64,000 nt of DNA from a virus (IMGVR_UViG_3300034095_001584); one strand, 5' to 3'. Positions 12,775 through 54,948 are shown, counted from the first letter of the stretch. Notes: generated from the letters alone by a model not told the origin. A program made the numbers and translations.

Positions 12775-13899
12775 ATGAACCCAAAAGATGTTATTATGAA
12801 TATATACAATATAAATGATGTTGTCGGAGAAAATAAAACTGAAAAATTAGTGTTTGTAACAGGTGTTACTGGTCAAGATGGTAGTCATATGGTTGATTAT
12901 CTACTTGAAAACACTGATTACACCATAATTGGTGGTGCAAGACGTTTAAGTATTAAAAACCATGAGAATATTGCGCATTTAGACAATAATCCACGTTTTA
13001 AATTGGTTAACTTTGATTTGAGTGATGCGCATAGTATCAGTAAAATTGTTGAAAAATTAAAACCAGACTATTTTATCAATTTAGCCGCTCAAACATTTGT
13101 AGGATCATCATGGGATTTTCCAGCCCAAACATGGGAATGTAATACCACTGCGGTAATTCATATACTTGAAGCTATTAGACAACACAAACCTTCATGTAGA
13201 TTTTATAACGCTGGTAGTAGTGAAGAATATGGAAATGTTGAGTATATTCCTCAAGATGAAAAACACCCAGCTAAACCACGTAGTCCATATGGTGCAAGTA
13301 AATCAGCTGCAAGACAATTAGTTAAAGTGTACAGAGAGAGTTACAATCTATATGCAGTTCAAGGTTTGTTGTTTAACCATGAAGGTACTCGTAGAGGAGA
13401 AGAATTTGTAACTCGTAAAATTACAAAAGGGGTAGCTAGAATCAAAAAAGCTATTCTTGAAAATAAATCATTTGAACCAATTGAATTGGGTAATGTAAAA
13501 GCCAAAAGAGATTGGAGTGACGCTGAAGATTTTGTCAAAGGTATTTGGTTAATGTTAAACCAAAACACTCCAAATGAATATGTTCTTTCCAGTAATGAAA
13601 CACACACTATTGCAGAATTTGTATGGTATGCGTTTAAATCAGCCAACATTGAAGGTGCATGGCATGGACAAGCAGAATCAGCGGAATTTAGTATTAGTAC
13701 CAAAGATGCAATGAAATATGAACCTATATCATCAGTTTTGGTTAAAATTAATCCTAAATTTTATAGACCCGCAGAAGTGGATTTGTTACTAGGGGATAGT
13801 ACCAAAGCCAGAAATGAATTGGAATGGAAACCAGAAACATCATTTGAACAACTCGTTGAAAAGATGGTGACTAATGATTTAAAACAAATCGGACTATAA
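12775..13899 (+). CDS. gmd: GDP-mannose 4,6-dehydratase
   Basis: N-terminal VTGVTGQDGSHMVDYLL Rossmann motif typical of GMD; 374 aa; YGASK catalytic motif. Confidence 0.9.
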   Translation: MNPKDVIMNIYNINDVVGENKTEKLVFVTGVTGQDGSHMVDYLLENTDYTIIGGARRLSIKNHENIAHLDNNPRFKLVNFDLSDAHSISKIVEKLKPDYFINLAAQTFVGSSWDFPAQTWECNTTAVIHILEAIRQHKPSCRFYNAGSSEEYGNVEYIPQDEKHPAKPRSPYGASKSAARQLVKVYRESYNLYAVQGLLFNHEGTRRGEEFVTRKITKGVARIKKAILENKSFEPIELGNVKAKRDWSDAEDFVKGIWLMLNQNTPNEYVLSSNETHTIAEFVWYAFKSANIEGAWHGQAESAEFSISTKDAMKYEPISSVLVKINPKFYRPAEVDLLLGDSTKARNELEWKPETSFEQLVEKMVTNDLKQIGL

Positions 13900-25529: not shown

Positions 25530-25912
25530 CTGTATTTTTGATAACTCTTTTCTTCAACAAATTTAGAGTTGGTAACTTCATTCAAATTCTTTTTGATTCT
25601 TGCTCTTTCATCATTGGTAAAATATACCCCTCTTGCCAATTGAATAAATTCATCATCAAACTCTTTTGACTTTTCTTTGTCTCTCAACTTATCTTCAATT
25701 ACCCACAATTTTTCATTTATTGCTTGTAATTCTTTAACCAAAGAATTTACAGTAACATTTGATTCATAACCAACTACATCAAGAAATGGTTTCAATTCAT
25801 CCAATTCATTATTGATGTTTTTTAATTTGATTGGATCAGCAATCATTTTTGATTTAATCACTAATATTGTGATTTTGTCCAATATTTCACCATTAGAAAC
25901 TTCTATTTTCAT
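25526..25912 (-). CDS. coiled-coil protein
   Basis: 128 aa, heptad-rich. Confidence 0.5.
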   Translation of the reverse strand: MKIEVSNGEILDKITILVIKSKMIADPIKLKNINNELDELKPFLDVVGYESNVTVNSLVKELQAINEKLWVIEDKLRDKEKSKEFDDEFIQLARGVYFTNDERARIKKNLNEVTNSKFVEEKSYQKYS

Positions 25913-26204
25913 AATTTTTAATCAGATATAACTTTTGTTGACGGGTCAATTGTTTGATTTGATACTCACGTTTCATTGCCTCACTTTTGGTATCAAAACA
26001 TTCAGTATACACCAATTTAACTGGCAGTCTAGTTTTTGTATATTTAGCTCCACACCCTTTATTATGATTACTAACTCGTTTTGTAACATCATTAGAATAA
26101 CCACAATAAAGGGTATTGTCTCTACATAACACTATATAACAACAATGATTTTTACCAACCACGAATATCAAGTTTTGCTCTAGGAAAAGCCGTTCCCATT
26201 CCAA
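25893..26204 (-). CDS. GIY-YIG nuclease-family protein
   Basis: FVVGKNHCCYIVLCRDNTLYCGYSNDVTKRVSNHN. Confidence 0.65.
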   Translation of the reverse strand: MEWERLFLEQNLIFVVGKNHCCYIVLCRDNTLYCGYSNDVTKRVSNHNKGCGAKYTKTRLPVKLVYTECFDTKSEAMKREYQIKQLTRQQKLYLIKNYENRSF

Positions 26205-26511
26205 TATTACCGTTATAACTAAATGTTAAGTCACTTGGATTTGATGTGACTGGTTCTGGTTTTTTGAGTGGGGAATGAATATTGATTGAAATATTTTCAC
26301 TATTATTAACTCTGATTGCAAAGTTATCACTATCAACAAATGACATTACACAACTAGCACCACTACTATGTGTAAATACCAACTTGTCACAATATACAAC
26401 TGTTTCTACAACTGGTGTTGGTTCAGATGCTTTAACTGTTGAACCAGCAACAACACCTGCAATTCCTCCAAATAGGGTGGAGAAAAACCCTTTACGATTT
26501 AGTTTTTCCAT
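26152..26511 (-). CDS. small secreted protein carrying the fibre motif NGNIGMGTAFPRAKLDI at its C-terminus
   Basis: signal-like N-terminus; shares the GNxGxGTxxPxxKL motif with the 1326-aa fibre. Confidence 0.45.
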   Translation of the reverse strand: MEKLNRKGFFSTLFGGIAGVVAGSTVKASEPTPVVETVVYCDKLVFTHSSGASCVMSFVDSDNFAIRVNNSENISINIHSPLKKPEPVTSNPSDLTFSYNGNIGMGTAFPRAKLDIRGW

Positions 26512-26552: not shown

Positions 26553-27032
26553 TTAATTTGATTGTATATCAGATTCTTTCTTTTCTATAATATCATTGGT
26601 GTAACCTTCATATTTTACTTGACCAATAACATTGATGATAAATTTGTTGGTTATAGTTCCTTCTAAATTGCTTGTAACAATATAACTTTCTTGTACACTA
26701 CCATCAAGAAAAAATACAATCTTTGTAGCACTAGTTTCTAGTATCTTCAAGTCATTTGTAACCGCATCCAACAAATAAAAGTCTTCAAATGAACTATACA
26801 TATTATAATCCGGATCAAATGTAAGTTCAAACTCTTTTTGTTGAAACGCTGATTGATACTTTAAATTAATCAAATAAGTCTTTAAATTCTCCCTTGCTTC
26901 ATAGTATCTGGTATTTCCCACCAAACTATCATAGTTAATAACAATTACACTAATAAGTGTTATCAGTATTGTCATAGCTAATAACAATTCAATTAACGTA
27001 AATGCTTTTCTTTTCATATGATTATATATCAC
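26553..27032 (-). CDS. prepilin-type N-terminal cleavage/methylation-domain protein (type IV pilin/pseudopilin-like)
   Basis: MKRKAFTLIELLLAMTILITLISVIV class-III leader and hydrophobic helix. Confidence 0.65.
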   Translation of the reverse strand: MIYNHMKRKAFTLIELLLAMTILITLISVIVINYDSLVGNTRYYEARENLKTYLINLKYQSAFQQKEFELTFDPDYNMYSSFEDFYLLDAVTNDLKILETSATKIVFFLDGSVQESYIVTSNLEGTITNKFIINVIGQVKYEGYTNDIIEKKESDIQSN

Positions 27033-27415
27033 TCACATACAATTTTCTTATCCTTATTACTGTAAAAAACCTCATCAATTCCAAACTGTTTGATCACACT
27101 AGCACATCCTTTACAAGGCTTGCTCATCATCAATTCTTTAGTCTCTTTACTCACCCTCAACACAACAATTTTATATCCACTCAAATCTTCCCTTTGAGAC
27201 TTGAAAATTACATCCACCTCAGCATGACGACCAACCATACCATCATGATAAGGATGTTTGGTGGTAATAGGAACGGTTTTGTTTTTATTCCAACCAATGT
27301 TAAGAATTTTGTTCTTCTTAACCAAAAAAGCAATGTGACTACAACGGTGTTCCACGTTGTTAGGACACATAGCCTTGGCAATCTCAACCATTCTGTTCAG
27401 TATCTTGACGTTCAC
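27029..27415 (-). CDS. CDA-fold zinc deaminase (CMP/dCMP or TadA-like)
   Basis: HAEVDVI ... PCKGCASVI. Confidence 0.6.
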   Translation of the reverse strand: MNVKILNRMVEIAKAMCPNNVEHRCSHIAFLVKKNKILNIGWNKNKTVPITTKHPYHDGMVGRHAEVDVIFKSQREDLSGYKIVVLRVSKETKELMMSKPCKGCASVIKQFGIDEVFYSNKDKKIVCE

Positions 27416-27462
27416 TATGAAGTCAAGATATCACAACTTTTTTTAAAAATCAATTACTTTTT

Positions 27463-28077
27463 TTAATTATTTGGTGGTGTGTATGACAACCATGAAATTA
27501 AAATGTGTTTATCATCTGATATTGGCATATTACCTTTATGGAAATAAGGATATCCAGCGGGATGAACTAATAGAGTACCTTTTTTAGGTTGAACCTTTAA
27601 ATTTGCATATAAGAATTCAGTTTCTCCACCCTCTTTAACGTCATTCAAATATACTAAGAATGCAAAGATTCTACGACTCATTGCAAAATTTCCTGATTCA
27701 CAATGCCATGAATTATAATGACCTTCTTTTGCTTTATATCTTTGCAATTGATATACTTCAAAATAATTATCAGCATTAAACATATAGTGTCTGTTTATTT
27801 TATCTTGGTGTGGAAATGATCCACAGTAAATTCCTATATAATTTATAAATGTTCTTTGGATTTCTGCTACACATTCAGCTTCACCATCCAATCCACATCC
27901 TATTAATTGCCAATCTTTTGAATTTTTAATATCATGATTCAATCCTAATCCTGTTAATCCATCATATAATTGATCTTTTAACATTCCTTTATAATATAAA
28001 TTTAATAATTTATCACACAACTCATTGCTAAATGCGTTGGGAAATACACCAATTGTATCTCTAAATAATAAGTCCAT
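27463..28077 (-). CDS. 2OG-Fe(II) oxygenase-family protein
   Basis: WHCESG (HxE) ... LLVHPAGYPYFHKG ... KHILISW, P4H-like arrangement. Confidence 0.5.
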   Translation of the reverse strand: MDLLFRDTIGVFPNAFSNELCDKLLNLYYKGMLKDQLYDGLTGLGLNHDIKNSKDWQLIGCGLDGEAECVAEIQRTFINYIGIYCGSFPHQDKINRHYMFNADNYFEVYQLQRYKAKEGHYNSWHCESGNFAMSRRIFAFLVYLNDVKEGGETEFLYANLKVQPKKGTLLVHPAGYPYFHKGNMPISDDKHILISWLSYTPPNN

Positions 28078-28080
28078 ATA

Positions 28081-28590
28081 TTATACTTTAAACTCTTTTC
28101 CGTCAAAAAATGCCTTACAACCCAACACTCTATCAATCAGATGTACTTCTACACCTGATTCATTAAACATGGTAAATGTAACATCATCATGCCCTTTCCA
28201 TTGTTCTCTCTGATGCATGTCACAGATATCATTAAATTGCTTGTGTATATATACTTTACTAATACCACTTTGAATTATACCCCTAGCACAATCCGCACAT
28301 GGCAAAGCATTTGTATACAATACAGATCCCTCTGTAGAAATACCATGTTTAGCAGCTGAATAAATAGCATTACGTTCACCGTGTTCAAACCACTTATATT
28401 TTTCTGGTCTTTCATTTCTATGAGACAATACATCATTTACACCAATTGGAATGCCGTTATACCCAGTTGAAATGATTCTATGATCTTTTACCAATATAGC
28501 ACCAATCTTGGTTTTTGGATCTTTGCTTTTGCTAGCAACCCAATAAACACCCTCCATAAACCAATTTATAAAACTTGTATTATCCTTCAT
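28081..28590 (-). CDS. dCMP deaminase
   Basis: HGERNAIYSA ... PCADCARGIIQSGISKV. Confidence 0.8.
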   Translation of the reverse strand: MKDNTSFINWFMEGVYWVASKSKDPKTKIGAILVKDHRIISTGYNGIPIGVNDVLSHRNERPEKYKWFEHGERNAIYSAAKHGISTEGSVLYTNALPCADCARGIIQSGISKVYIHKQFNDICDMHQREQWKGHDDVTFTMFNESGVEVHLIDRVLGCKAFFDGKEFKV

Positions 28591-28615: not shown

Positions 28616-29386
28616 TTATACCGTCAATTTATATCTATCAACCAAAGTATTTATATTATTCTCTATCATCACAATATAATTACTGGAAGTATATTCATAC
28701 AACGCATAAAACTTATTATCAAGCAATGGTTTAACCAACTTATACCAAAATCCAGGTGTCTTTCTTATTAAGTCTTCTAATCCATTGTACATATTTAAAT
28801 TATGATATTTCTGAAACTCATCAAATTCTTGATACAGTTTATCTAGTTTTTGTACATACTGTTCATCTCCCATCTGACTCAACCAATCACCCAAAGCAAC
28901 ACAAGCACCTATATGATCTATCTCCAAATTTTCTACCTTTTTAAAATAATCCGTCACCATTATTAAATTACAAATTCTACTCTTTTCTTCTTCAGTCAAT
29001 ATATCATCAAAATTGTTACCCATAAAATGACACCCTCTTTCTACATGAGTATTGATATATTGTGCTCCCGTTCCATCTTCATCTTCTTTTAACTTTAAGA
29101 ACCCTATATCATGATACATTACCGCAACAACACCACAAAAGAAATCTTGTTCATTTAACTTAATTATACCTTTATTCACTATACTGGCATATACATCAAG
29201 AAATACAGATGTACTTGTCAAAAAGTGATATAAATCATGATATTTTGTTTCTAATTTATGATATCTGTCATCACCATAATTACAAATATTAATCAAGTAA
29301 TCATAAAGTACTAATAATCTTTCATCATGTTTGTTGAATAGTTGTAAGGATACATTTTTAATACTTCTTGGTGTTGCGAATTTCAT
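28616..29386 (-). CDS. HD-domain phosphohydrolase (candidate cNMP phosphodiesterase)
   Basis: VAVMYHDIGF HD motif plus upstream His. Confidence 0.45.
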   Translation of the reverse strand: MKFATPRSIKNVSLQLFNKHDERLLVLYDYLINICNYGDDRYHKLETKYHDLYHFLTSTSVFLDVYASIVNKGIIKLNEQDFFCGVVAVMYHDIGFLKLKEDEDGTGAQYINTHVERGCHFMGNNFDDILTEEEKSRICNLIMVTDYFKKVENLEIDHIGACVALGDWLSQMGDEQYVQKLDKLYQEFDEFQKYHNLNMYNGLEDLIRKTPGFWYKLVKPLLDNKFYALYEYTSSNYIVMIENNINTLVDRYKLTV

Positions 29387-29395
29387 AAGACATTG

Positions 29396-30835
29396 TTACT
29401 TAATTTTAAGAGGTTGATATACTTTTACATACACTTCTTTTCCTTTTACCTTCACTGTATCTATATAATAGTAATCAATTAGATTGTTTGTTTTATTATA
29501 TATACTTTCACTTACTAAAATTTTGGTATTATATTGTTTATTTGATGCTTCTAATCTGGAGGCTAAATTAACTGGATCTCCAGTAACAGTATAATTGATA
29601 CGGTTGGTTGAACCAATATTACCCACAATAACTTCACCAGAATTGATACCTATTCTGGTTTTGAATGTAAATTTCTTACCTTCACTTTTCCATTTTTGAT
29701 TCAACGCATCAATCTCATTAACAATTTTGATTGCAGTTTTGACTGAGACAAATTCATGGTTTTCAACTTTACTTGGTGCATTCCAAAATGCCATCACAGC
29801 ATCACCAATGAATTTATCAACAGTTGCTCCACTTTCTTCTAAACATTTTACATAGATATCAAAATATTCATTTAATGATGTAACAACTTCATGTACATCA
29901 TTATTTTCTGATATGGATGTAAATCCTTCAATGTCACTGAATAATATTGTTACATATTCTTTTTCCCCACCAATTTTTGCATCTTTACCTTGTGTAATCA
30001 GTTGTTTTACAACTTTATCTGGTACATACTTAGCAAATGATCTTAAACCCGTTTTAACTTTATCAGTTGCTTCAATCATATCATTCACCTCAGTAATATT
30101 ACTCTTGAAGTCAATGTGTTCATTTACATCCAAATCTTTTAACTTGAGAATTTCATCTCTTACTTTATATAATGGTTTTCTAATTGCATTGGTTACCCAA
30201 AATACAATGGGCAATATCACAGAAAACATACCAATGAATACAAATGTAAATTTGATTTTATAAACTCTTATATAATAATCAGCATCAACAGACTTAATAT
30301 CACTACATACAGCATAAATTAACTTACCATTCTTAAATACAGGCTTATAAGCAGATAAAAATGTACCCCATTTATCTGTATAATAATCACTTTCAAAATG
30401 TATTTCATCCTTTAGATTTTTAAACAACTCTTTTAATCCATCACCAGCATCATCATATACTTCTCCCAACTTAGCCTGTTCTGATACATCATCACCACAA
30501 TCCATTATATAAGTAATATTTGTGCCTGTTTGTCTTACTATATAAACAAACTTAATATTTTCTATTTGATTTTTAATACTTACTATTTGTTTTCTATAGT
30601 TAATAAATATTTCACTTTGTTCTTGTTCATACTTAGTAAGACTATCAATTTCATCTGGGTCAAGAATACTACTGCAAACATTTACAGATGTATGTAGACT
30701 TCTTTTTAAACTACTTTTTGCAATATCTTCAATAGCAAATATTAACAGAAAGAAATATACTACACTTACCAATGCCAAAATGAATATGGTACTGGTAGAT
30801 AATGCAAATCTTAAATTGAATTTAAGTCTTTTCAT
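29396..30835 (-). CDS. membrane-bound class III adenylate/guanylate cyclase with periplasmic sensor domain
   Basis: two TM helices flanking a ~170-aa extracytoplasmic domain, HAMP-like linker, CHD with ILFSDIEGFT, DKFIGDAVMAFW, TGDPVNLASRLE (Lys/Asp pair suggests ATP). Confidence 0.8.
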   Translation of the reverse strand: MKRLKFNLRFALSTSTIFILALVSVVYFFLLIFAIEDIAKSSLKRSLHTSVNVCSSILDPDEIDSLTKYEQEQSEIFINYRKQIVSIKNQIENIKFVYIVRQTGTNITYIMDCGDDVSEQAKLGEVYDDAGDGLKELFKNLKDEIHFESDYYTDKWGTFLSAYKPVFKNGKLIYAVCSDIKSVDADYYIRVYKIKFTFVFIGMFSVILPIVFWVTNAIRKPLYKVRDEILKLKDLDVNEHIDFKSNITEVNDMIEATDKVKTGLRSFAKYVPDKVVKQLITQGKDAKIGGEKEYVTILFSDIEGFTSISENNDVHEVVTSLNEYFDIYVKCLEESGATVDKFIGDAVMAFWNAPSKVENHEFVSVKTAIKIVNEIDALNQKWKSEGKKFTFKTRIGINSGEVIVGNIGSTNRINYTVTGDPVNLASRLEASNKQYNTKILVSESIYNKTNNLIDYYYIDTVKVKGKEVYVKVYQPLKIK

Positions 30836-31479
30836 AGTGATATCCTTAATCCAAATGAATAAGTGTATACAATACTATTGTCTGGAGAACTAAATGGTTT
30901 ATCTATTTCTCCTACGGTAAATATTCCTAAAAACTTATTTACATCGTAATCAAATCTAATCACACTACCATAATAACCATATCTATTATCATAATCAGCT
31001 GTTCCTACTACTGGTCTAAAATTAAAGTGTAGTTTTTCAGTAATATCCTTATTATAATCAAAGCTTAATACTGCTCTTGGAGTATTATTATAGGTTATCA
31101 TACTGAAATATATGGTTGGAGATACTATCCAATCATAACTTAGTGATGTATATGGTTCAAAGTAATGATCACCTACACTATAATAATAGTAATACCAACT
31201 ACCAGCGTCTAATGTTAGTTTATCTGTTAGTTTGTATTCACTACCCAATCCAAAGTCACTTTCTTTATATTGGTCCAAACCTTGGTATTGTATATAGTTA
31301 AGATGTGGCGTAAAATCACCTAGTTGATGGCTAAAAGTGTTCTCAGATACAAAAGTATTAACTGAGTATATTTGACCGTCAAATAAATAATTCTTTGTAT
31401 AATAATTTGAAGTTTCAAAGTCTAATGCAAATATCCTCCATGACATAAGCATAAAACTCATCAGCATTAATTTTTTCAT
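30832..31479 (-). CDS. signal-peptide protein, outer-membrane beta-barrel-like
   Basis: MKKLMLMSFMLMSWRIFA leader; alternating aromatic/hydrophilic strands; ATGA overlaps both neighbours. Confidence 0.4.
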   Translation of the reverse strand: MKKLMLMSFMLMSWRIFALDFETSNYYTKNYLFDGQIYSVNTFVSENTFSHQLGDFTPHLNYIQYQGLDQYKESDFGLGSEYKLTDKLTLDAGSWYYYYYSVGDHYFEPYTSLSYDWIVSPTIYFSMITYNNTPRAVLSFDYNKDITEKLHFNFRPVVGTADYDNRYGYYGSVIRFDYDVNKFLGIFTVGEIDKPFSSPDNSIVYTYSFGLRISL

Positions 31480-33251
31480 GTTTTTGTTGGTTGATTAGGC
31501 TCCGCCTTTTTAACTCTACTAGATGGAAATGCTTTGTTACCAAAATCACTGCCGTGTAAACTATACAAATGCATAATTACACCGTGTTTTACAACTACAT
31601 CTCCCAAATCATTTACTAATACATATGGTGGACGGTCATATTTTAACATTACAGCTGAACTAACCAATAAATGATTAGTTTCACCCGCATCCATTACTCT
31701 TTGAGCATAATTGATACCATCACCACTAATATTTAAATTACCGTTGATGTCCTCCATTGGAATCACTGATCCACAATGTACACCCATTCTCATTTGTAAA
31801 TCTGGTCTATCCTTTACTGCCTTAGCTATAGCAATAGCACAATTCATGGCATCTTCCAAATAGGTAAAGAATCCCAATACCATACCGTCACCAGTAGGTA
31901 ATATAATTAACTTTTCAAGAGCATTAGCTGTTTTGTATTGCATTGTAGACTTGACCAATGCACCCAAGTCTTTACAAGCCTTCTTTTGTTCATCTGTTGT
32001 TTTCTTACTGTAAGCAACAATGTCCATAAAGAATATGTAACCTTCTTGTTCCACATCCAATTGTAGTCTACTGGATTTGACTTCTATATCAACTTGTTCA
32101 ACTTTCTTGACAATTTGTTTGACTGGTTTAACAACTTCTACCTTCTTTTCTTCTTTCTTTTCTACAACTGGTATATCTTTAAGTTTCAAGAAATCTTTCC
32201 AGTTAATCTTCTTTGCTGGTGCATCTTTCTTTTTTGGTTCTTTTGCAGCTTGTTCTTGTTCATGTTTCTTTATTACAGCTTCTTCTTTTTCACGTTTTTC
32301 AATAAACATTGCAATTTGTTTCTTGACTTCATCTGTAATATAGATGGTTACATCTTTGCCGCCACCGCCTGTATCATGTTTCTTCTTTCTTTGAGCACCT
32401 TTGGATTGTAGATATGTTTGCATTTCTATATTTCCAGTCTTGAATGCAATGTCTAAAGGAGCAATTTCACCTTTAAAGTCTGCACCGTTAACATTTGCTC
32501 CCAAATGTACCAAAAACTCCACCATGTCAACGTCGTTAGCGTTAACGGCGTAGTGTAATGGCATCCAACCGTTCTTTTCATCTCTACCATTAACTTTACC
32601 GTCTTTATCAAAGAATGATTGTACACCTTCAAAATCACCAGTTTCTGCACAGAAATGAATACTAACACCACCTGCGGATTTAGCACCGTACTTATTCAAT
32701 AATTTAACTATTTCACCTCTATTGGTGTTGGATAATACATCAATAGGATTGTTTTTACCCAAGAAATCTTTCTTGTTGACATCTGCGCCCTTGATAATTA
32801 GATATTCAACCAAGTGTTTTTGACCGTAATTTACGGCATAATGTAGTGCAGTCCAACCTTTACCAGCGTCAACTTCATTGATATCACAACCTTTACTCAA
32901 CATTTCTTCAATAGAAACAATATCACCATTCTTTGCAGCTAAGTGAAAACTACTACCACTACTGTATTTTGCACCTCTTTGTTGTAATACTTCCGCAATA
33001 GGTTTGAAACCTTTTTGTTCAGCTACATCTAGTGCGGTATTTTTACTGGTCCAATCTTTGCAATTGGCATCTGCACCGTGATTTAATAGTAATCTGACAA
33101 TTTCTATTTGATTTTCTTCTACAGCAACAACCAATGGTGGATTACCAGTGTCATCATCTCTTTGATTAACATCAATCTTTTCTTTTTCTATACAGTTATA
33201 GACATTATCATATAACCCTCTACGTATATGTGTAAAAATATTAATTGCCAT
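31476..33251 (-). CDS. ankyrin-repeat protein fused to C-terminal class III nucleotidyl cyclase domain
   Basis: about 7 ANK repeats (GNPPLVVAV...LLNHGADAN...), Lys-rich linker, then FFMDIVAYSK, PTGDGMVLGF, SGDGINYAQR cyclase motifs. Confidence 0.8.
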   Translation of the reverse strand: MAINIFTHIRRGLYDNVYNCIEKEKIDVNQRDDDTGNPPLVVAVEENQIEIVRLLLNHGADANCKDWTSKNTALDVAEQKGFKPIAEVLQQRGAKYSSGSSFHLAAKNGDIVSIEEMLSKGCDINEVDAGKGWTALHYAVNYGQKHLVEYLIIKGADVNKKDFLGKNNPIDVLSNTNRGEIVKLLNKYGAKSAGGVSIHFCAETGDFEGVQSFFDKDGKVNGRDEKNGWMPLHYAVNANDVDMVEFLVHLGANVNGADFKGEIAPLDIAFKTGNIEMQTYLQSKGAQRKKKHDTGGGGKDVTIYITDEVKKQIAMFIEKREKEEAVIKKHEQEQAAKEPKKKDAPAKKINWKDFLKLKDIPVVEKKEEKKVEVVKPVKQIVKKVEQVDIEVKSSRLQLDVEQEGYIFFMDIVAYSKKTTDEQKKACKDLGALVKSTMQYKTANALEKLIILPTGDGMVLGFFTYLEDAMNCAIAIAKAVKDRPDLQMRMGVHCGSVIPMEDINGNLNISGDGINYAQRVMDAGETNHLLVSSAVMLKYDRPPYVLVNDLGDVVVKHGVIMHLYSLHGSDFGNKAFPSSRVKKAEPNQPTKT

Positions 33252-33359: not shown

Positions 33360-33791
33360 TTAATCATTTTTTTTAAATCTACTTAGATCCAAGTTTGGAA
33401 GTGGTTTTTCTATATTAAGACCTGCTAATCTTTCATTTTGTACTACCAATTTGTTGCCACTTACAACTTTTCCATCTACTACGTCATAAATAAAGAATAC
33501 TGTTTTGGTAAGTCCTACACGAACAATTCTGCCTGGTTTACCATCAACATATACTACGTCATCTTCTTTATAATCTGACCCAATAAACATAAACAATGCG
33601 GCAGCTAACTTTTCAATGCTTGATTTGAACATCAATACAACTAAACCAGCCAAGAACATCCAGACATATTTGCCTGTCATATCTTGAGCAGTGTTTTCCA
33701 ATACTTGTTGAGAAATTACATGAGTTACGTTGGTGTCTATCATAAGTTTATAATAAATATTATAATAAATAGCATAACGTTCAAGAAACAA
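33360..33791 (-). CDS. small membrane protein (weak MscS-beta-domain-like region)
   Basis: TM segment KYVWMFLAGLVVLMF; VDGKPGRIVRVGLTKTVF. Confidence 0.4.
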   Translation of the reverse strand: MFLERYAIYYNIYYKLMIDTNVTHVISQQVLENTAQDMTGKYVWMFLAGLVVLMFKSSIEKLAAALFMFIGSDYKEDDVVYVDGKPGRIVRVGLTKTVFFIYDVVDGKVVSGNKLVVQNERLAGLNIEKPLPNLDLSRFKKND

Positions 33792-33813
33792 AAAAACCGT
33801 GTTTTATCACGGT
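33786..33813 (-). terminator. rho-independent terminator
   Basis: aaccgtg/cacggtt stem with T-run on minus strand. Confidence 0.5.
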
Positions 33814-33934
33814 TTTGTACTACATTTATGATGATTTTTTCTTATCTTTTTTTGGCCCCCAATTAATATTGTCATAATTGGAGTTGTATATTTTTTTATT
33901 CACTGGGCGTGGTTTATCGCCTTTTCCTGCACCA

Positions 33935-34918
33935 TTACTTTTCATATTGTATATGTTCCTTTACTTTTACAACGTCATTAAATAAAATTGTGCCGTCTAT
34001 CACTATTTTTAGATTATATTCCTTTTTATTAATATCTAATTTTATTGATTGTCTTAATTCATTTACTTTAATTTGTTTAACACTATCATCTATTATCATA
34101 TAACATTCATATTCAAAAGATTTTTTATTATCAATTATGATGTGATTGTTAAAATTTAAATCTGGTATAATTATAAAATAAAAATGATCAATTTGATTAA
34201 ATAAATCATGACTTTCATGGCTGTTCTTTAACTCGGAATTTCCATTCAAATAAACTGTTTTTTTGTAAAGATCTTCACCTGGAAATTGATGAAAATTAAT
34301 ATTATGTTTTACTAACAATTGATGAATTCTATTTTCAAATAAAAAATCTAATTTTTCATGAATAAAATAATCATCTATAGTATTATATAATGAAAATATC
34401 TTATCTGCCGTTTCGATTGACATACTAAATATATTAAGAACATGATACGAAAAATATATTACACAGTCTTTTTCATCTAATATTTTATTATGTTCATCTA
34501 ATATATCTGATTGGCCAATCAAAACGTCATAATCTATAATATGGAGTTTCTTATATTTTTTATTTTTTATTAAAGCAACTGAGTTTTGTATCAATGTCCA
34601 TATTGCATATGCATGTACTATGACATCTGGATCTAAGTATGTATAATTATACGAAATTTTATGATTATTTATACAGTCCCATTGCCAAATGCCTATATTG
34701 TATTTTGTAAATCCACCATTCTTATTCGTCAGTACATCATTGTTATGATCGTAACAATAGTAGTCTACCATTTTTTGTATATCAAATGGTAAAGGATAAT
34801 GTGATGTAATAAGAATATCCTTGTTTTTTTCTTTTAAATCAATAATACATTTTTTTAATAAATCAACCTTTTTTTCATTATTACAATATGCCATTACGAT
34901 ACACAAATCATTGTTCAT
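33935..34918 (-). CDS. hypothetical protein (possibly glycosyltransferase-like)
   Basis: 327-aa ORF. Confidence 0.45.
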   Translation of the reverse strand: MNNDLCIVMAYCNNEKKVDLLKKCIIDLKEKNKDILITSHYPLPFDIQKMVDYYCYDHNNDVLTNKNGGFTKYNIGIWQWDCINNHKISYNYTYLDPDVIVHAYAIWTLIQNSVALIKNKKYKKLHIIDYDVLIGQSDILDEHNKILDEKDCVIYFSYHVLNIFSMSIETADKIFSLYNTIDDYFIHEKLDFLFENRIHQLLVKHNINFHQFPGEDLYKKTVYLNGNSELKNSHESHDLFNQIDHFYFIIIPDLNFNNHIIIDNKKSFEYECYMIIDDSVKQIKVNELRQSIKLDINKKEYNLKIVIDGTILFNDVVKVKEHIQYEK

Positions 34919-38850: not shown

Positions 38851-38926
38851 TGGTGGACCGTGCTGGACTTGAACCAGCAACCGAAGAATTATGAGTTCTC
38901 TGCACAAACCATTATGCTAACGGTCC
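38851..38926 (-). tRNA. tRNA-Met/Ile2 (anticodon CAT), 76 nt, CCA encoded
   Basis: hand fold: GGACCGT/ACGGTCC acceptor, D stem GCAT/GTGC, anticodon loop CTCATAA, T arm GCTGG-TTCAAGT-CCAGC. Confidence 0.75.
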
Positions 38927-38949
38927 ATTAAAATTACTATTACTAAAAC

Positions 38950-39025
38950 TGGAGCGATATCTCGGACTTGCACCGGCCTTGTGGACTGGAAGGTCTACCG
39001 TGCTCCTCATAGACACTAATATCGC
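38950..39025 (-). tRNA. irregular tRNA-like gene, anticodon unresolved
   Basis: perfect 7-bp acceptor GCGATAT/ATATCGC plus CCA; D arm GTG-N10-CAC like its neighbour; weak T stem; no clean anticodon stem. Confidence 0.3.
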
Positions 39026-39033
39026 ATTAAAAA

Positions 39034-39106
39034 TGGAGCGGGTCCGAACTTTGCATTTCGCCTTTTAGTCTGGTAGACTAACGTGCTCTCTTTACACCTG
39101 ACCCGC
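39034..39106 (-). tRNA. tRNA-like gene, 73 nt, anticodon read as ACC (Gly?) - uncertain
   Basis: acceptor GCGGGTC/GACCCGC, T70, CCA; anticodon stem TTAGT/ACTAA with loop CTACCAG; 4-bp T stem with 8-nt loop ATGCAAAG. Confidence 0.4.
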
Positions 39107-39443
39107 ATATTAAATCAAAATAGGAAGGACTAATGATTACCTCCAAGTTTCAGAATCACGACTGGTTATTCATCCACAGTCCACACGGGTAATTACTCCT
39201 TGTGTTAATGACTGATGGGATTTTGTTTTCCCCACAACGGGCTACGATTTATCATATATTTTAGCTACGGTCCCGTTACGCTCAAATTTGGGGTTGAACG
39301 ACCTCAAATTCTCCATAGACTTACCCCCCATGATTCCTACTCCAACCAATATACAACGTTTTTCAACGCCATATATTGTGCGTTACAACTAAACTAATCG
39401 TTGTTCCGCCACTATCTTAAATTGTTAAAGAACTATCAAAAAA

Positions 39444-39721
39444 TGGTAGGCGTGAGTGGATTCGAACCACCGCTTTACAGATTTTCGTACCACTATAATT
39501 TTCATTACACATTTCTGTTTTGTGGTCTGGACTTTCTCTTCATCATAACATTTCTGTTTTAGATGTTTGCCGTTAAGTCTCTACACCTTCTCATTTCTGA
39601 GCTTGGCTCGGGATTGGCAGTTAAGCTTTCCCCGAATTTGACAAATTCTACTTTAGAGATTTCTCTCTAAGCACTCAATTTACGCTAAAGTCTGTTGACT
39701 CTTCCGCTGGTCTACACGCCC
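39444..39721 (-). tRNA. split tRNA gene (anticodon UAA, class I) interrupted by ~202-nt intron after U34
   Basis: 5' exon 39721..39688 holds acceptor GGGCGTG, D arm with GG, anticodon 5' stem ACAGA and CUU; 3' exon 39485..39444 holds AAAA, TCTGT, AAAGC, GGTGG-TTCGAAT-CCACT, CACGCCT, A, CCA. Confidence 0.6.
39486..39687 (-). ncRNA. putative group I intron in tRNA anticodon loop
   Basis: exon ends in U, intron ends in G; intron GAGU can pair with exon ACUU giving a U.G P1 helix; no ORF inside. Confidence 0.4.
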
Positions 39722-39806
39722 ATTTAAATTACTTACAAAGAACTATTACTTACTACTCTTTCATCTTATCACATCATCCTCTGATGTCAACTGGTTTTTC
39801 AAAAAA

Positions 39807-39890
39807 TGGTGGCTATGGAGGGACTTGCACCCCCACGGTTTTACCCACGGCTTTTTGAGAACCGCATGTCTTCTATTCCATCACATAGCC
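39807..39890 (-). tRNA. tRNA-Leu (anticodon CAA), class II with long variable arm, CCA encoded
   Basis: acceptor GGCTATG/CATAGCC, anticodon stem CGGTT/AGCCG with loop CTCAAAA, 14-nt variable arm, T arm GGGGG-TGCAAGT-CCCTC. Confidence 0.65.
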
Positions 39891-39898
39891 ATTAAATT

Positions 39899-39975
39899 TG
39901 GTAGTCCAGGTGGGGATTGCACCCACGACCTCACCCTTATAAGGAGTGTGCTCTGACAAACTGAGCTACTGGACC
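39899..39975 (-). tRNA. tRNA-Ile (anticodon UAU), 77 nt, CCA encoded
   Basis: acceptor GGTCCAG/CTGGACT (G1.U72), D arm GCTC-AGTTTGTCA-GAGC, anticodon loop CTTATAA, T arm GTGGG-TGCAATC-CCCAC. Confidence 0.65.
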
Positions 39976-40075
39976 ACTAAAGTTTTTTAAAGAACTAAAT
40001 TGTTGAATTCTTAGTTACAGAGTTTATTCTGTATGCAATAGTCACTACGTGCAAGTGATTCAACTTTGACTATCT

Positions 40076-40147
40076 AGCGGGGGAGGGAATCGAACCCCCT
40101 ACCTTCCGGTTATGAGCCGGACGATCTATTCCGTTGATCTACCCCGC
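40076..40147 (-). tRNA. tRNA (anticodon CAT), no encoded CCA
   Basis: acceptor GCGGGGT, D arm GATC-AACGGAATA-GATC, anticodon stem TCCGG/CCGGA with loop CTCATAA, T arm GGGGG-TTCGATT-CCCTC; one acceptor/T junction irregularity. Confidence 0.6.
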
Positions 40148-40439
40148 AAATTGTTTTGTTAAAGAACTAACTAAAATCGGTGTGGTTTATTTAAAGTCCA
40201 AACCACAAAATTACTAATGTTCACTTCAACATTAACGAGTTTCTTCTACCTTTGAAACTTCATTTTGAATGAGATTTTTAATCTAAGGTAACCAATCTCA
40301 ATTAACCTAAAATCATCTTATCACACATTGATGTTTTGTCAACATCTAAAATTGTCGCCGGTCTTTTAATTGGCGCTTTAATCCTCTGGTGGGGAACCAA
40401 CTCAAGTGTCCTATTAATCGGATATTCTCCGGGCGTAAA

Positions 40440-40515
40440 TGGTAGCTATGACAGGAATCAAACCTGTATATTCCATCTTATGAGGATGGCGCATCAATCA
40501 TTCTGCCACATAGCC
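40440..40515 (-). tRNA. tRNA (anticodon CAT), 76 nt, CCA encoded
   Basis: acceptor GGCTATG/CATAGCT (G1.U72), anticodon stem CCATC/GATGG with loop CTCATAA, T arm ACAGG-TTTGATT-CCTGT. Confidence 0.7.
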
Positions 40516-40522
40516 ACTGAAA

Positions 40523-40573
40523 TGGTCGCTCGCCTAAGAATCTCACTTAGTTACCAATGGTTATGAGCCATCG
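40523..40573 (-). pseudogene. truncated tRNA, 3' half only (CAT anticodon arm, T arm, acceptor 3' strand and CCA; no 5' half)
   Basis: GATGG-CTCATAA-CCATT, CTAAG-TGAGATT-CTTAG, GCGAGCG-A-CCA present; no complementary 5' acceptor or D arm within 60 nt. Confidence 0.4.
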
Positions 40574-40799
40574 TCAAATAATAACCTGCCGCCAGCTGTT
40601 TAAATTTAAAGAACAAATTAAAAATTGTGTTGGATGTGTTTATTGAATACTTTATCCACCCAACAAACAAAGTATACCATGACTCATCCCCGCAACCAAG
40701 AAGTTTTTTCAGAGACTTCCAACTCTAGGGGTGTTTTGGTTATTTACCCTCCACCAATCAGTTTTGTCTTCTGGACAACTGATCAACCAGAAATATATA

Positions 40800-41522
40800 T
40801 TACTCTATATTTAGTTTAGAGTCAACAAAATCTTTCAATTTTCTTACTCCTTTGCCTGAACAAACTCTTGAACAATATTGAAATTTAGCTGGCTTTCCAC
40901 AACATAAACATTTATTGTTTTTAACATTATGTGGATTTCCTTCATAAAGTTCAATGAAATTTTTCCCATATTTGGACTCTACATATTTAATTATAGGTTT
41001 AATTTCGTTTTTGTCAACCACTAAAATTTTTTCTGTAAAGTATTTTTGTTTATTTTCAAATTCTTTTTCTTTGTACCCTTTTATTTCAACATAAGTTTCT
41101 GACTCAATCAAATAAAAATCTGGATAATATTTAGAAACTTTTCCTTTTGTGTTTATATAATCAAATGATTTAGTATTGCGATTAAATCTTATATTAAGAT
41201 CAATTGAATAAATTACCCATGCTAATTCATAACTGCTATTACAGAATATACCTTTATACCATCCAGACTTTGATCTACCCGATCCCAGTCTAGCTCCACC
41301 GGATTTTCCTTTGAAAAATCCTTTATCTCTAGCTAACTCTTTACATTGCAAAGAACAGAATTTTCTTTTGTCAGACGGCCTAAGATACATTTTTTTATTA
41401 CATTCTACACAATGCAGAATTTTCTTTTCTTTTTTAGAAAGAATAAATTTATCTGGGTTTAATCTGACCAACTCTTTTAGTTTGTTTTTTATTTTTAATT
41501 TAGTTTCTTCAGAGTGTTTCAT
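40800..41522 (-). CDS. free-standing homing-endonuclease-like protein (NUMOD3-type motif, terminal zinc ribbons, possible PD-(D/E)xK core)
   Basis: HSEETKLKIKNKL resembles NUMOD3; CVEC...CSLQC and CLCCG...CSRVC; DFYLIESETYVEIKG; sits inside tRNA cluster. Confidence 0.45.
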   Translation of the reverse strand: MKHSEETKLKIKNKLKELVRLNPDKFILSKKEKKILHCVECNKKMYLRPSDKRKFCSLQCKELARDKGFFKGKSGGARLGSGRSKSGWYKGIFCNSSYELAWVIYSIDLNIRFNRNTKSFDYINTKGKVSKYYPDFYLIESETYVEIKGYKEKEFENKQKYFTEKILVVDKNEIKPIIKYVESKYGKNFIELYEGNPHNVKNNKCLCCGKPAKFQYCSRVCSGKGVRKLKDFVDSKLNIE

Positions 41523-42023
41523 ATCAATAAATAGTATGAACCCCTCTCAAACTATTGATTATTTTTGTCTTAAAAATGGTATCCCATAGCGGTGCTGCCC
41601 CGCTTTCTCCGGAGTGAAAGTCCAGTGATCTAGCTGATAATCTAATGGGACAATAAATTGGTAGGGCCTGACGGTAACGATCCGTCTTCCAGGGATTAAA
41701 AGTCCCTTGCTTCACCATTAAAGCTTAGACCCCATTAAAATTTGTTAAAGAACTTACTACAAAGTCATCTTACTACACATTCTTCTTTTGTCAACTATTT
41801 CTTTGTTCTTTGTTGGTGACTCCCTTTGATTAAAGGTCAAGGCAGTTCCGCCATACGTAGATGTTCTAGAGGAGTGCTTCTCCCACCATGCTGAAAGAAC
41901 AAAGAATCGTTTACTTACTACTTCTTTATCTTACCACTAAGTTTTCAAAGATCAACTTCTTTTTTCAAGAAGTTTTGAGGTAAATTATAAATATAATGAA
42001 ATATTCAAATTTTACCAGAAATT

Positions 42024-42099
42024 TGGTGTCCCCACCAGAAATCGAATCTGGATCATTCGCTTAGAAGGCGAATGCTCTAACCATTTGAGCTATAGGGAC
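42024..42099 (-). tRNA. tRNA-Arg (anticodon UCU), 76 nt, CCA encoded
   Basis: acceptor GTCCCTA/TGGGGAC, D arm GCTC-AAATGGTTA-GAGC, anticodon stem TTCGC/GCGAA with loop CTTCTAA, T arm CCAGA-TTCGATT-TCTGG. Confidence 0.8.
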
Positions 42100-52922: not shown

Positions 52923-53339
52923 TTAAAATATATCAGTATCATCTACACTCACCACAAGTAATTGTAATCCTAATGAACGTGATTCACCTTGTACTTGATG
53001 TTCATTTTCACACAAACAATTCAATACTGACACTGTTTTTAGTCTTTCCAGTACAATATTAATAGGAACATGCGGTAATATATCAAATTTAAGCGTATTA
53101 TTAATTATAAGATTGTTGTTTATAGGACTTAATATACGTAAATTGACTTTATTAACGTTGTTGATACTCATACCAAACCATTTGTGTGTCCATATCCACT
53201 TTTTAAATGGTTCACCGTATTCAATATCATGCAGACCAAAACCAAAGTCTGCATATTTACTGTTACCTTCAAAGTCTTTGCTTACGTATTGTAATCTCAT
53301 ATTATTTACTAATGTAATACTTTTCCAGAATAACACCAT
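52923..53339 (-). CDS. hypothetical protein
   Basis: 138-aa ORF overlapping next gene start by 38 nt; true start may be internal. Confidence 0.4.
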   Translation of the reverse strand: MVLFWKSITLVNNMRLQYVSKDFEGNSKYADFGFGLHDIEYGEPFKKWIWTHKWFGMSINNVNKVNLRILSPINNNLIINNTLKFDILPHVPINIVLERLKTVSVLNCLCENEHQVQGESRSLGLQLLVVSVDDTDIF

Positions 53340-54948
53340 CTAATTGTGTACTATCTAAATTCTGCAAAGCAGCTTGATAGTGCGTCAATATAGACTTACC
53401 TCTTACATTAAAAGAAGTGTTAACCAATATTGGATATCCACTTAATTTTTCAAATTCTCTCAAAATCTCATATAAATATGGATTTTGTTCTGATTTTAAT
53501 GTTTGCAATCTGGAGCTACCATCCACATGAGTAATTGCAGGTAACATCTTTCTATATTCCTCTCTAACTTTAGGACTGTAAGACATATAACTGTAATTAA
53601 CATTGTTAGATGTTTCAAAATACTTATGCGCATCTTCTTCACAACAAACAGGAGCAAATGGTCTAAACCATTCTCTGAATTTTACTTTCTTGTTTATATC
53701 ATCTTTAATGTTAAAGAGGCCAGGATGAGCAAGTATTGATCTATTTCCTAATGCTCTTGGTCCTACCTCACTATTACCTTGACACAATCCAATAATTTTA
53801 CCGTTGAATAGTTCTTTTGCAATTAAACTTGGATCTGCATGTTGCCATGGTCTATAAGTTAGAATGTGTGGTAGTGTTTCTTTATCAAGAATTTGACATC
53901 CACTATACATTGGTTCTTTTATCAATTTCTTTTTAAGATGTAAACACATAATACCGTATGATATTCCACTATCATTTGGACTACATGGCACATAAAAATT
54001 TGTATTTGGATACATCTTTGAAAGTTTATCATTCAAAAGTACATTTAAAGCACCACCCCCGGTCAAACAAACATTTTTATATATAATCGAATTGAAATGT
54101 TTTTTAAACTTCTCAAGAAATAAATTTTCAAATGCAAATTGAATGTTAAATGCTAAGTCATACGCACTTTTTCCATTAAAACTGTTGGTTGACTTACCAT
54201 CGTCAATAATATTGAAAAAAGTAGTATAATCAGGAAAGCTCTTTGTTGTCAAAAACTTATAACACTTATCATACAGTTCTTTGTTATATGATCCATATGC
54301 ACTTAATCCCATTAATTTACCTGCACCAGTCAAAATATTTAATGTTCTATCAGAAGATTTACTAATTTCTTTTATATAAATAGATGCCAAACTATAATTG
54401 GTGGTAAAATCTAAAAAGTCATGATCATTAAGTCTCTTTAAACCATCATTTTTATTAGCTTCATATAAACTATACATTCCATCATTACCACCACCATCAT
54501 AACTTACAACAAATGCGGAATCATATTCACTATCATAAAATGCAGAAGCCGCATGACAATCATGATGGTTATATCTATATACATTAACAATACCAAATTC
54601 TTTTTGTACTCTTGTATAGTAATCTAAACAAATTTCATTTGAACCTGGAGATGGTATAGTAAACAATCCAGTTTTAAATACATCATCAAATCCAAAGTCT
54701 TCAGCAATTTTCTTTACATATTTAAAAAAATAATCTTTTTCTGATTCAGATAACCTACCATATATAAAATATCTTTGACCCCACACTCTTTCTAATTCTA
54801 GAGATAATAGTTTGTTATCGGATGGTCTATAAAAACAAATATTACTATCATGACCATCAATATGAAATGAAATATACTGATCTGTATTGTTACTCATAAA
54901 ATTCAAATTTAAACTCATTATCAAATTGATATTGTATCCATGATTCAA
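53302..54948 (-). CDS. NodU/CmcH-family carbamoyltransferase
   Basis: N-terminal ISFHIDGHDSNICFY...LSLELERV pattern and 548-aa length fit the family. Confidence 0.7.
   Translation of the reverse strand: MNHGYNINLIMSLNLNFMSNNTDQYISFHIDGHDSNICFYRPSDNKLLSLELERVWGQRYFIYGRLSESEKDYFFKYVKKIAEDFGFDDVFKTGLFTIPSPGSNEICLDYYTRVQKEFGIVNVYRYNHHDCHAASAFYDSEYDSAFVVSYDGGGNDGMYSLYEANKNDGLKRLNDHDFLDFTTNYSLASIYIKEISKSSDRTLNILTGAGKLMGLSAYGSYNKELYDKCYKFLTTKSFPDYTTFFNIIDDGKSTNSFNGKSAYDLAFNIQFAFENLFLEKFKKHFNSIIYKNVCLTGGGALNVLLNDKLSKMYPNTNFYVPCSPNDSGISYGIMCLHLKKKLIKEPMYSGCQILDKETLPHILTYRPWQHADPSLIAKELFNGKIIGLCQGNSEVGPRALGNRSILAHPGLFNIKDDINKKVKFREWFRPFAPVCCEEDAHKYFETSNNVNYSYMSYSPKVREEYRKMLPAITHVDGSSRLQTLKSEQNPYLYEILREFEKLSGYPILVNTSFNVRGKSILTHYQAALQNLDSTQLDGVILEKYYISK

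Follow-up and report, generated by a model that had tools for sequence, protein, structure and literature searches.

Gene organization and viral setting

The sequence analyzed in this work is a 64,000-nt stretch of viral DNA (IMGVR_UViG_3300034095_001584), hereafter referred to as the window, and our subject is a run of four minus-strand genes within it that encode two nucleotidyl cyclases, a beta-barrel protein and an HD-domain protein. An initial annotation had described these genes as a single phage-encoded cyclic-nucleotide signaling module. We recovered four open reading frames (ORFs) whose limits agree with those originally assigned, with the following products:

31476..33251, minus strand: ankyrin-cyclase fusion, 591 aa (Ank families at E 1e-27 to 1e-38; Guanylate_cyc 21.6 bits)
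30832..31479, minus strand: 12-stranded outer-membrane beta-barrel with signal peptide, 215 aa
29396..30835, minus strand: two-transmembrane (TM) class IIIb adenylate cyclase, 479 aa (Guanylate_cyc 90.6 bits; CyaB 3r5g 7.6e-29)
28616..29386, minus strand: HD-superfamily, class I phosphodiesterase (PDE)-like protein, 256 aa, of Pfam family PF28239 (Npun_R2479)

Stop and start codons overlap by 4 nt between the ankyrin-cyclase and the barrel and again between the barrel and the TM cyclase, and 9 nt separate the TM cyclase from the HD gene. In pairwise comparisons with diverged relatives, the ratio of nonsynonymous to synonymous substitution (dN/dS) was 0.05-0.08 for the ankyrin-cyclase, 0.12-0.22 for the barrel, approximately 0.1 for the TM cyclase and 0.07 for the HD protein. 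Across all four genes and their parts the values ranged from 0.04 to 0.22, indicating strong purifying selection; these are therefore functional genes and not chance ORFs.

Elsewhere in the window we identified a virion structural protein, collagen-like tail fibers, a helicase, DNA and RNA ligases, and 7 tRNAs. Related sequences were found on IMG/VR viral contigs, the largest of 296 kb (IMGVR_UViG_3300023179_004209), and in one relative (L143) a major capsid gene of the T4 Gp23 type lies approximately 2 kb from the ankyrin-cyclase. The nearest deposited records correspond to uncultured huge phages (LR7565xx, 595-735 kb) and T4-like cyanophages, and the 6-kb region gave no match to GenBank phages at the DNA level. 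A bacterial origin of the window, or one from a eukaryotic giant virus, was considered and rejected on account of the tail fibers, the virion proteins and the tRNA cluster, as well as the location of the relatives on viral contigs, one of them with the Gp23 capsid gene. The source is a large, freshwater-type, T4-like jumbo phage from a group widespread among metagenome samples, and the region is an accessory island of its genome.

Transmembrane cyclase and outer-membrane barrel

The third gene of the run encodes a membrane-anchored cyclase with TM helices at residues 17-35 and 196-214, as located by hydropathy, which delimit the following domains:

30251..30730, minus strand: extracytoplasmic domain, residues 36-195, between the two TM helices
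29399..29965, minus strand: catalytic domain, residues 291-479 (Pfam stretch 292-468; PDB alignment 291-475)

The two-helix topology proposed at the outset was recovered, with an extracytoplasmic segment of about 160 residues instead of the expected ~170. This segment displayed no Pfam match at E<=10 and no PDB sequence match, and no CHASE2 domain was found by Pfam in the protein. The linker had been termed HAMP-like; no Pfam HAMP match was obtained even at E<=10, so that the resemblance is one of position only. The catalytic domain, on the other hand, clears the PF00211 gathering score (90.6 vs 21.9 bits), and when aligned to Pseudomonas aeruginosa CyaB (3r5g) the FSDIEGFT, DKFIGD and YTVTGDPVNLASRLE motifs line up, placing the metal-binding Asp residues in FSDIEGFT and FIGDAV, the transition-state Asn and Arg in VNLASRLE, and the Lys in DKFIGD. 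Seven residues ahead of the Asn lies a Thr (YTVTGDPVN, the counterpart of YTIIGREVN in CyaB). The specificity positions were assigned by the established class III numbering (mammalian K938/D1018); at these positions we read Lys and Thr, as in CyaB, and not the Lys/Asp pair reported initially. The protein is therefore classified as a class IIIb adenylate cyclase, and its sequence carries an adenylate (ATP) signature.

The gene immediately upstream had been described as coding for a signal-peptide, beta-barrel-like protein, and our results support an outer-membrane beta-barrel. Its best structural matches are the small porins KdgM and NanC, of like size and strand number at 8-14% identity, and it displays the 12 strands and the signal peptide that characterize that fold. 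No match was obtained in Pfam, NCBIfam, PADLOC or PHROG, and sequence searches of the PDB with the single sequence and with a close-family profile were uninformative, without any match. Its homologs amount to only 42 clusters, 51-92% identical and all unannotated, and a pattern-based scan across 185,579 bacterial genomes returned no relative. By sequence, the barrel appears to be lineage-specific, with no detectable relatives beyond this phage lineage.

The association of a barrel with a sensor cyclase could also reflect envelope remodeling, in which both proteins would alter the cell surface or its permeability (for example import of nutrients or cofactors, aggregation or superinfection exclusion) and cyclic AMP (cAMP) would act as a local regulator. 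This reading draws on the KdgM/NanC-size porin fold, on a pilin-like gene located nearby, and on phage cyclases that lie inside an outer-membrane secretion cluster (PMC9599517), an order that we confirmed in the viral contig L026. However, the window genes include no curli or secretion components, the cyclase is devoid of CHASE2, the barrel has no relatives outside its lineage, and the ankyrin-cyclase and the PDE-like gene would be left unexplained; we consider envelope remodeling an unlikely account.

HD protein

The last gene of the run was assigned to PF28239 (Npun_R2479) by a precomputed annotation that covers this exact protein and its homologs. Against NCBIfam NF045583 it scored 43 bits (E 2.7e-11; equivalog cutoff 400), which suggests a divergent member of that family. 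Its only PHROG match is to "phosphohydrolase" (1e-4), and no GenBank phage protein matched it. A full HMMER profile search gathered 622 relatives, and among 44 diverse family members residues H50, H54, H92, D93, H114 and D167 are invariant. The window protein reads HDIGF at its HD motif and thus, as we understand the PROSITE-type HDxxH signature, presumably lacks its second His.

The predicted structure is an all-helical HD fold, whose best matches are class I cyclic nucleoside monophosphate (cNMP) phosphodiesterases. These align over approximately 215 residues of the model, whereas SAMHD1, YfbR, PPX/GppA and alarmone hydrolases align over approximately 125-180 residues with lower scores. Single-sequence and close-family profile searches of the PDB were uninformative; a broadened family profile retrieved PDE5 and PDE10A as best matches, only at E 0.008-0.05, over the YHxxH...HD segment. 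Within the family, P0305 scored above the PDEase_I cutoff, the long relatives P0226, P0281, P0297, P0305 and P0314 span 540-572 aa, and half of the ten long relatives scanned bear a C-terminal GAF domain. Furthermore, P0327 (803 aa) displays the architecture HisKA-REC-class III cyclase-HD. The 80 best bacterial loci (L059-L138) belong almost entirely to Verrucomicrobiota, and in 8 of them the gene next to HD, in convergent orientation, encodes a class III cyclase; these 8 come from related genomes and do not represent eight independent events.

The initial suggestion that this protein could be a cNMP phosphodiesterase is sustained by the fold, the metal-site motif, the fusions to GAF and cyclase domains and the PDEase_I matches of 8 of the 44 family members, the protein itself failing to match that model. 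On the combined evidence, the HD protein is probably a cyclic-nucleotide phosphodiesterase, with a mono- or dinucleotide substrate. No bacterial class I-type PDE was described in the literature found, nor did we find any on the function of the Npun_R2479/PF28239 family, the coverage of the former search being incomplete.

Directly downstream of the HD gene (27029-28590, minus strand) are two cytidine/dCMP-deaminase-like genes around a 2-oxoglutarate (2OG)-Fe(II) oxygenase gene, which together look like a nucleotide or DNA-modification cluster. Its composition varies among relatives, with two oxygenase copies in L042 and a deaminase split or replaced in L002.

The HD protein might alternatively be a nucleotide-pool enzyme (a deoxynucleoside triphosphatase, a nucleotidase or an alarmone hydrolase) of this downstream cluster, its adjacency to the cyclase being incidental. 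Indeed, HD is a backbone gene beside nucleotide-metabolism genes, its PHROG match is generic, the generic HD model is detected in 11 of the 44 family members, and SAMHD1, YfbR, PPX/GppA and alarmone hydrolases are among its fold matches. These folds nevertheless score lower and cover less of the model than the class I PDEs, the conserved HxxxH...HD aligns, by profile at marginal E-values, with the PDE metal site, and both the fusions to GAF and class III cyclase domains and the bacterial loci with a neighboring cyclase point to cyclic-nucleotide metabolism. In addition, the barrel-cyclase cassette, where present, is always inserted directly upstream of HD. A nucleotide-pool function thus seems rather unlikely to us, while retaining an appreciable chance.

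Ankyrin-cyclase fusion

The first gene of the run encodes a protein with neither signal peptide, TM helix nor hydrophobic segment, organized in three parts:

32382..33251, minus strand: ankyrin array, residues 1-290 (three Ank_2 stretches; dN/dS 0.04-0.06)
32067..32381, minus strand: Lys/Glu-rich linker, residues 291-395 (K26, E14 and V13 among 105 residues)
31476..32066, minus strand: class III cyclase catalytic domain, residues 396-591 (267 homologs; Leu/Asn at the base-specifying positions)

We counted nine ankyrin repeats, and not the seven or so estimated before, arranged as a triplicated three-repeat unit whose copies are 29-36% identical among themselves. The Lys-rich linker between array and cyclase was recovered as Lys/Glu-rich, and is the least constrained segment of the protein (dN/dS 0.09-0.22).

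The catalytic domain falls just below the PF00211 cutoff (21.6 vs 21.9 bits), and only weak PDB matches were obtained for it (3mr7 and Rv1900c). Its bacterial homologs, annotated as class 3 adenylate cyclases, are 40-45% identical to it at E ~1e-40, and those that were scanned pass the same cutoff (27.6-35 bits). In an alignment with these homologs and the TM cyclase (A1), residues D30, D75, N134, R138 and K175 (numbered in a 211-aa segment) are invariant; both cyclase domains thus retain the two metal-binding Asp, as well as the catalytic Asn, Arg and Lys. The absence of the specificity Lys, inferred initially from a PTGDG motif, was confirmed, with Leu at the Lys position (LPTGDG) and Asn at the Asp/Thr position. 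This pair fits neither the Lys/Asp(Thr) signature for ATP nor the Glu/Cys-type signature for GTP. Both residues show almost no variation within the bacterial subfamily, and they are therefore a trait of ordinary bacterial signaling cyclases and not a phage invention. The genomic context of two bacterial members was inspected: a Crp-type cNMP-binding regulator is encoded two genes away from one, and the other is surrounded by Ser/Thr kinases.

No ankyrin repeats were present among the 120 relatives of the subfamily that were listed. The catalytic domain matched no GenBank phage protein, and the PHROG matches of the full protein are to ankyrin families only, consistent with the earlier impression that the fusion is not a described phage architecture; no description of it was found in the literature either, with incomplete coverage. 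Within the databases searched, the ankyrin-cyclase fusion appears to be confined to this phage lineage.

Since ankyrin repeats are typical of such proteins, the fusion could be conceived as an effector against a eukaryotic cell, delivered by a eukaryote-associated host bacterium. NCBIfam matches to Legionella Dot/Icm ankyrin effectors were indeed obtained, and ankyrin genes have been documented in phage WO, whose host Wolbachia is an intracellular symbiont. Those NCBIfam matches, however, arise from the repeats only, are generic and fall well short of the cutoffs of those families; the protein has no signal peptide or other secretion signal, the cyclase domain groups with ordinary bacterial signaling cyclases, and the phage is T4-like and widespread in metagenomes. 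We regard a role as eukaryotic effector as very improbable.

Synteny among related viral contigs

In order to describe the arrangement of these genes among relatives, a scan for the ankyrin-cyclase domain was carried out, which recovered 77 viral (IMG/VR) loci; our scans are pattern-based and can miss divergent copies. The ankyrin-cyclase is directly preceded by a small gene, g143, in 66 of the 77 loci (elsewhere g143 lies upstream of the barrel or of HD), and the following arrangements were observed:

50 loci: g143, ankyrin-cyclase, unrelated genes (Mom-family, GIY-YIG endonuclease, Gp23 capsid)
8 loci: g143, ankyrin-cyclase, dCMP deaminase
about 8 loci: window-type order, full or truncated
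1 locus: g143, ankyrin-cyclase, HD
6 loci: ankyrin-cyclase without g143

In contrast with the initial view of the four genes as one module, their adjacency is a minority arrangement among approximately 100 related viral contigs. The interval between g143 and HD occurs in complete, partial and cyclase-free versions. HD was detected in only 22 viral contigs, and it accompanies the ankyrin-cyclase on approximately 12 of the 77 contigs with that gene; in L043, L045 and L046 the two genes are 12-17 kb apart. The barrel, on the other hand, lies directly upstream of the TM cyclase, with the 4-nt overlap, in all 17 contigs that possess this cassette, HD lies directly downstream of the TM cyclase in every cassette contig that reaches far enough, and the order barrel-TM cyclase-HD holds across HD identities of 54-96%. 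This pattern of linkage therefore defines three separable units, namely [g143-ankyrin-cyclase], [barrel-TM cyclase] and [HD]. Only barrel, TM cyclase and HD are robustly linked, in this order, and the ankyrin-cyclase is mostly located elsewhere.

Divergence within the cluster is uneven. Contigs L003 and L007-L011 are 93-95% identical to the window in the ankyrin-cyclase, 88-89% in the barrel, 82% in the TM cyclase and 54-55% in HD, and in L043 the identity is 93% for HD and 83% for the TM cyclase, which suggests recombination between lineages within the cluster. Our search for a deletion scar at L042, devoid of the barrel-cyclase cassette, yielded just a weak 32-nt match, probably due to chance.

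The distribution of HD also bears on the possibility of immune evasion, according to which HD would be an Apyc1-like destroyer of cNMP alarms (Pycsar or cGMP systems), the cyclases being separate or serving to flood or desensitize such pathways. HD occurs without an adjacent cyclase in L045 and L046, where it could act on host-made nucleotides; its modeled fold is PDE-like, and phage enzymes that degrade cNMPs are an established evasion route (Apyc1; PMC9117128). The TM cyclase, moreover, matches the PADLOC PycC model PDLC00734 at 3.5e-35, as generic class III cyclases do likewise, and the ankyrin-cyclase matched none of the PycC models. Nevertheless, no effector with a cyclic nucleotide-binding domain (CNBD) and no anti-defense neighbor was detected with PADLOC, and HD is restricted to the 22 contigs mentioned above, being absent from most of those with the ankyrin-cyclase. 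Its tight linkage to the TM cyclase, constant wherever the cassette is present, better fits a pair for synthesis and degradation, and its bacterial relatives resemble housekeeping signaling proteins with GAF and cyclase fusions. The link to Pycsar raised by the initial annotation received no support: membership in that system fails on its defining effector, the TM cyclase bears an adenylate signature, and the unusual residues of the ankyrin-cyclase are a hallmark of the bacterial subfamily. The residues that select pyrimidines differ by clade of pyrimidine cyclases (PMC11224242). Overall, we attribute a low probability to immune evasion, comparable to that of envelope remodeling.

Proposed role in infection

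With the integration of these findings, our preferred interpretation is that the phage uses three cyclic-nucleotide units to control host cNMP signaling, chiefly that of cAMP, in the course of infection, which we hold to be probable, if only slightly beyond an even chance. From the domain identities, the conserved catalytic residues, the topology, the fold, the selection and the synteny set out above, we infer a scheme for ligand sensing, products, PDE activity and physiological target. In this scheme, the barrel would admit or present an external or periplasmic cue, which the ~160-aa periplasmic domain of the TM cyclase would sense, and the cytoplasmic domain would then make cAMP. The ankyrin-cyclase would constitute an independently mobile second source of cNMP, with repeats that may bind a host or phage protein and thereby gate or localize the enzyme. 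The HD enzyme would hydrolyze the cyclic nucleotide, either rendering the phage signal transient or clearing host-made cNMP, and the output would presumably be read by a Crp-type or other cNMP-binding protein of the host; a host receptor is presumed because none was found in the window by phmmer, a weak test. A published precedent comes from the pelagiphages, in which a membrane cyclase stands beside envelope components (PMC9599517).

Several observations weigh against control of host signaling by these units. The four-gene adjacency was found in just about 8 of the 77 ankyrin-cyclase loci, and neither HD nor the TM cyclase was detected in ankyrin-cyclase contigs of 83-134 kb, so that the units do not necessarily act together. 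HD occurs without an adjacent cyclase in L042, L045 and L046, and in the window it lies directly upstream of the deaminase/2OG-oxygenase nucleotide cluster. The HD protein itself matched neither the generic HD nor the PDEase_I model, even in a relaxed Pfam scan, and member by member these models were detected about equally often, in 11 and 8 of the 44 relatives, respectively. One relative bears an MshEN-like motif for binding of cyclic di-GMP (37 vs a cutoff of 38 bits), from which the substrate could be a cyclic dinucleotide. Finally, no Crp- or GAF-type receptor or CNBD was detected in the window, by the same single-sequence phmmer search.

A more ambitious version of our interpretation would join all the genes in a complete trans-envelope circuit, with a private channel leading to a periplasm-sensing cyclase and to a viral class I-type PDE, together with an ankyrin-gated cyclase for a non-canonical cNMP, the PDE also disarming cNMP-based immunity. 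We consider this full circuit doubtful, and somewhat less likely than either envelope remodeling or immune evasion taken individually.

If host control by the three units is correct, widespread large environmental phages would write and erase a second messenger of their hosts, even supplying the entry of the cue through the outer membrane, and phage takeover of the host would extend from metabolism into sensory signaling. Three tractable reagents would also become available: an ankyrin-gated cyclase, a cyclase with a Leu/Asn pocket, which is common to many soil-bacterial enzymes, and a compact class I-type PDE of 256 aa. Independently of the phage, the Npun_R2479/PF28239 family (approximately 620 representatives, mainly of Verrucomicrobiota) is tied to class I PDEs by fold, by metal-site motif and by fusions with GAF and cyclase domains, so that it can be tested directly whether eukaryotic PDEs have a prokaryotic origin or counterparts among prokaryotes.

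Neighboring genes

Upstream of the four-gene run, the following features were recognized:

33360..33791, minus strand: g143, possibly a mini MscS-like membrane protein (weak match to MS_channel_2nd, E 0.046; dN/dS 0.11-0.12)
33793..33816, minus strand: terminator-like hairpin upstream of g143 (9-bp stem with 4 G-C pairs and a T run; consensus match only)

The true start of g143 is probably an internal ATG and not the annotated TTG, as its relatives align from residues 13-17, and the hairpin is a possible 5' boundary of the transcription unit. Further upstream (33935-34918, minus strand), a 327-aa gene without family match is present in some near-identical contigs, with a 319-aa variant instead in L052; this marks a further point of variation close to the upstream end of the island.

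On the opposite side, beyond the deaminase/oxygenase genes, the minus strand encodes a 159-aa protein with a type IV pilin/pseudopilin N-terminal methylation motif (26553-27032; Pfam N_methyl, 1.9e-5), a 119-aa protein whose N-terminus resembles a secretion signal and which matched no family (26152-26511), and a stand-alone GIY-YIG domain protein (25893-26204; Pfam 3.6e-21). A GIY-YIG/NUMOD3 homing endonuclease lies beside the ankyrin-cyclase in L143 (5912-6655), an inspected relative with the majority arrangement.

In more distant parts of the window, the seven tRNA genes (38851-42099, minus strand) include three tRNA-Met(CAT) and a tRNA-Ile with anticodon TAT. The collagen-like tail-fiber gene (1768-5748, minus strand; 1326 aa) has a local G+C of 0.41 vs approximately 0.31, and spurious long ORFs occur within it on both strands. 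A Nol-like carbamoyltransferase (53302-54948, minus strand) and a nucleotide-sugar epimerase (12775-13899, plus strand) represent auxiliary sugar or modification genes.

Comparison with known systems

The statement that phages rarely carry nucleotidyl cyclases proved too strong, as several PHROG cyclase families match the TM cyclase and annotated cyclases are found in the GenBank phages HTVC008M, Melnitz and an Acinetobacter phage. The closest precedent comes from pelagiphages, in which CHASE2 cyclases are located within phage curli (type VIII secretion system, T8SS) clusters of HTVC008M-type myophages and HTVC023P-type podophages (PMC9599517). We observed an equivalent organization in the viral contigs L020-L040 (e.g., L026, 3677-8864), with a CHASE2-class III cyclase after CsgF, CsgG, a curlin-like repeat protein and FecR. 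Both systems comprise a phage membrane-anchored class III cyclase with an extracytoplasmic sensor and an adjacent outer-membrane partner, and their catalytic domains are approximately 40% identical. However, the pelagiphage system combines a CHASE2 sensor with CsgG, CsgF, curlin and FecR, none of which accompanies the window genes; in the latter, a ~160-aa sensor without family match is associated with the apparently lineage-specific 12-stranded barrel and followed by the PDE-like gene.

Among solved structures, P. aeruginosa CyaB is the best match of the TM cyclase, with which it shares Lys/Thr, the two metal-binding Asp, and Asn/Arg; it differs in its N-terminal membrane and sensor module, and the window enzyme is phage-encoded and paired with a barrel. 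This barrel resembles the KdgM/NanC porins in size and strands, with no sequence-family match in Pfam or the PDB. As for the ankyrin-cyclase, its catalytic domain shares 40-45% identity and all motifs, Leu/Asn included, with the bacterial "LPTGDG" subfamily (Acidobacteria-type cyclase-TM-TPR/TolB-like proteins). In the bacterial members aligned, the cyclase is at or near the N-terminus and is followed by TM and C-terminal segments, whereas in the phage it is C-terminal to the ankyrins.

The model of the HD protein conforms to the catalytic-domain fold of the eukaryotic class I PDEs (PDE1-11), although the phage protein has 256 aa, compared with catalytic domains of approximately 320 aa, and lacks a PDEase_I match. 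To our knowledge, this enzyme class is regarded as essentially eukaryotic. A pairing of class III cyclase and class I PDE occurs in CAPE of streptophytes, which joins an adenylyl cyclase and a PDE of these classes (PMC8115329); a cyclase and a class I-type PDE are likewise found in one chain in P0327 and as adjacent genes in the phage, while CAPE is a single eukaryotic polypeptide without a barrel or an ankyrin array. Apyc1, the phage anti-Pycsar enzyme that degrades 3',5'-cNMPs (PMC9117128), has a class II metallo-beta-lactamase fold with an HxHxDH motif and is unrelated to the HD protein, in which the fold is of the HD/class I type and that motif is absent; by analogy, the HD protein is a possible functional counterpart of Apyc1. 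Taken together, phage class III cyclases and phage enzymes that degrade cNMPs were already known, and the novelty lies in the combination and in three of its parts, namely a fusion of ankyrin repeats to a cyclase, a private barrel to which a sensor cyclase is coupled, and a phage class I-type PDE-like gene.

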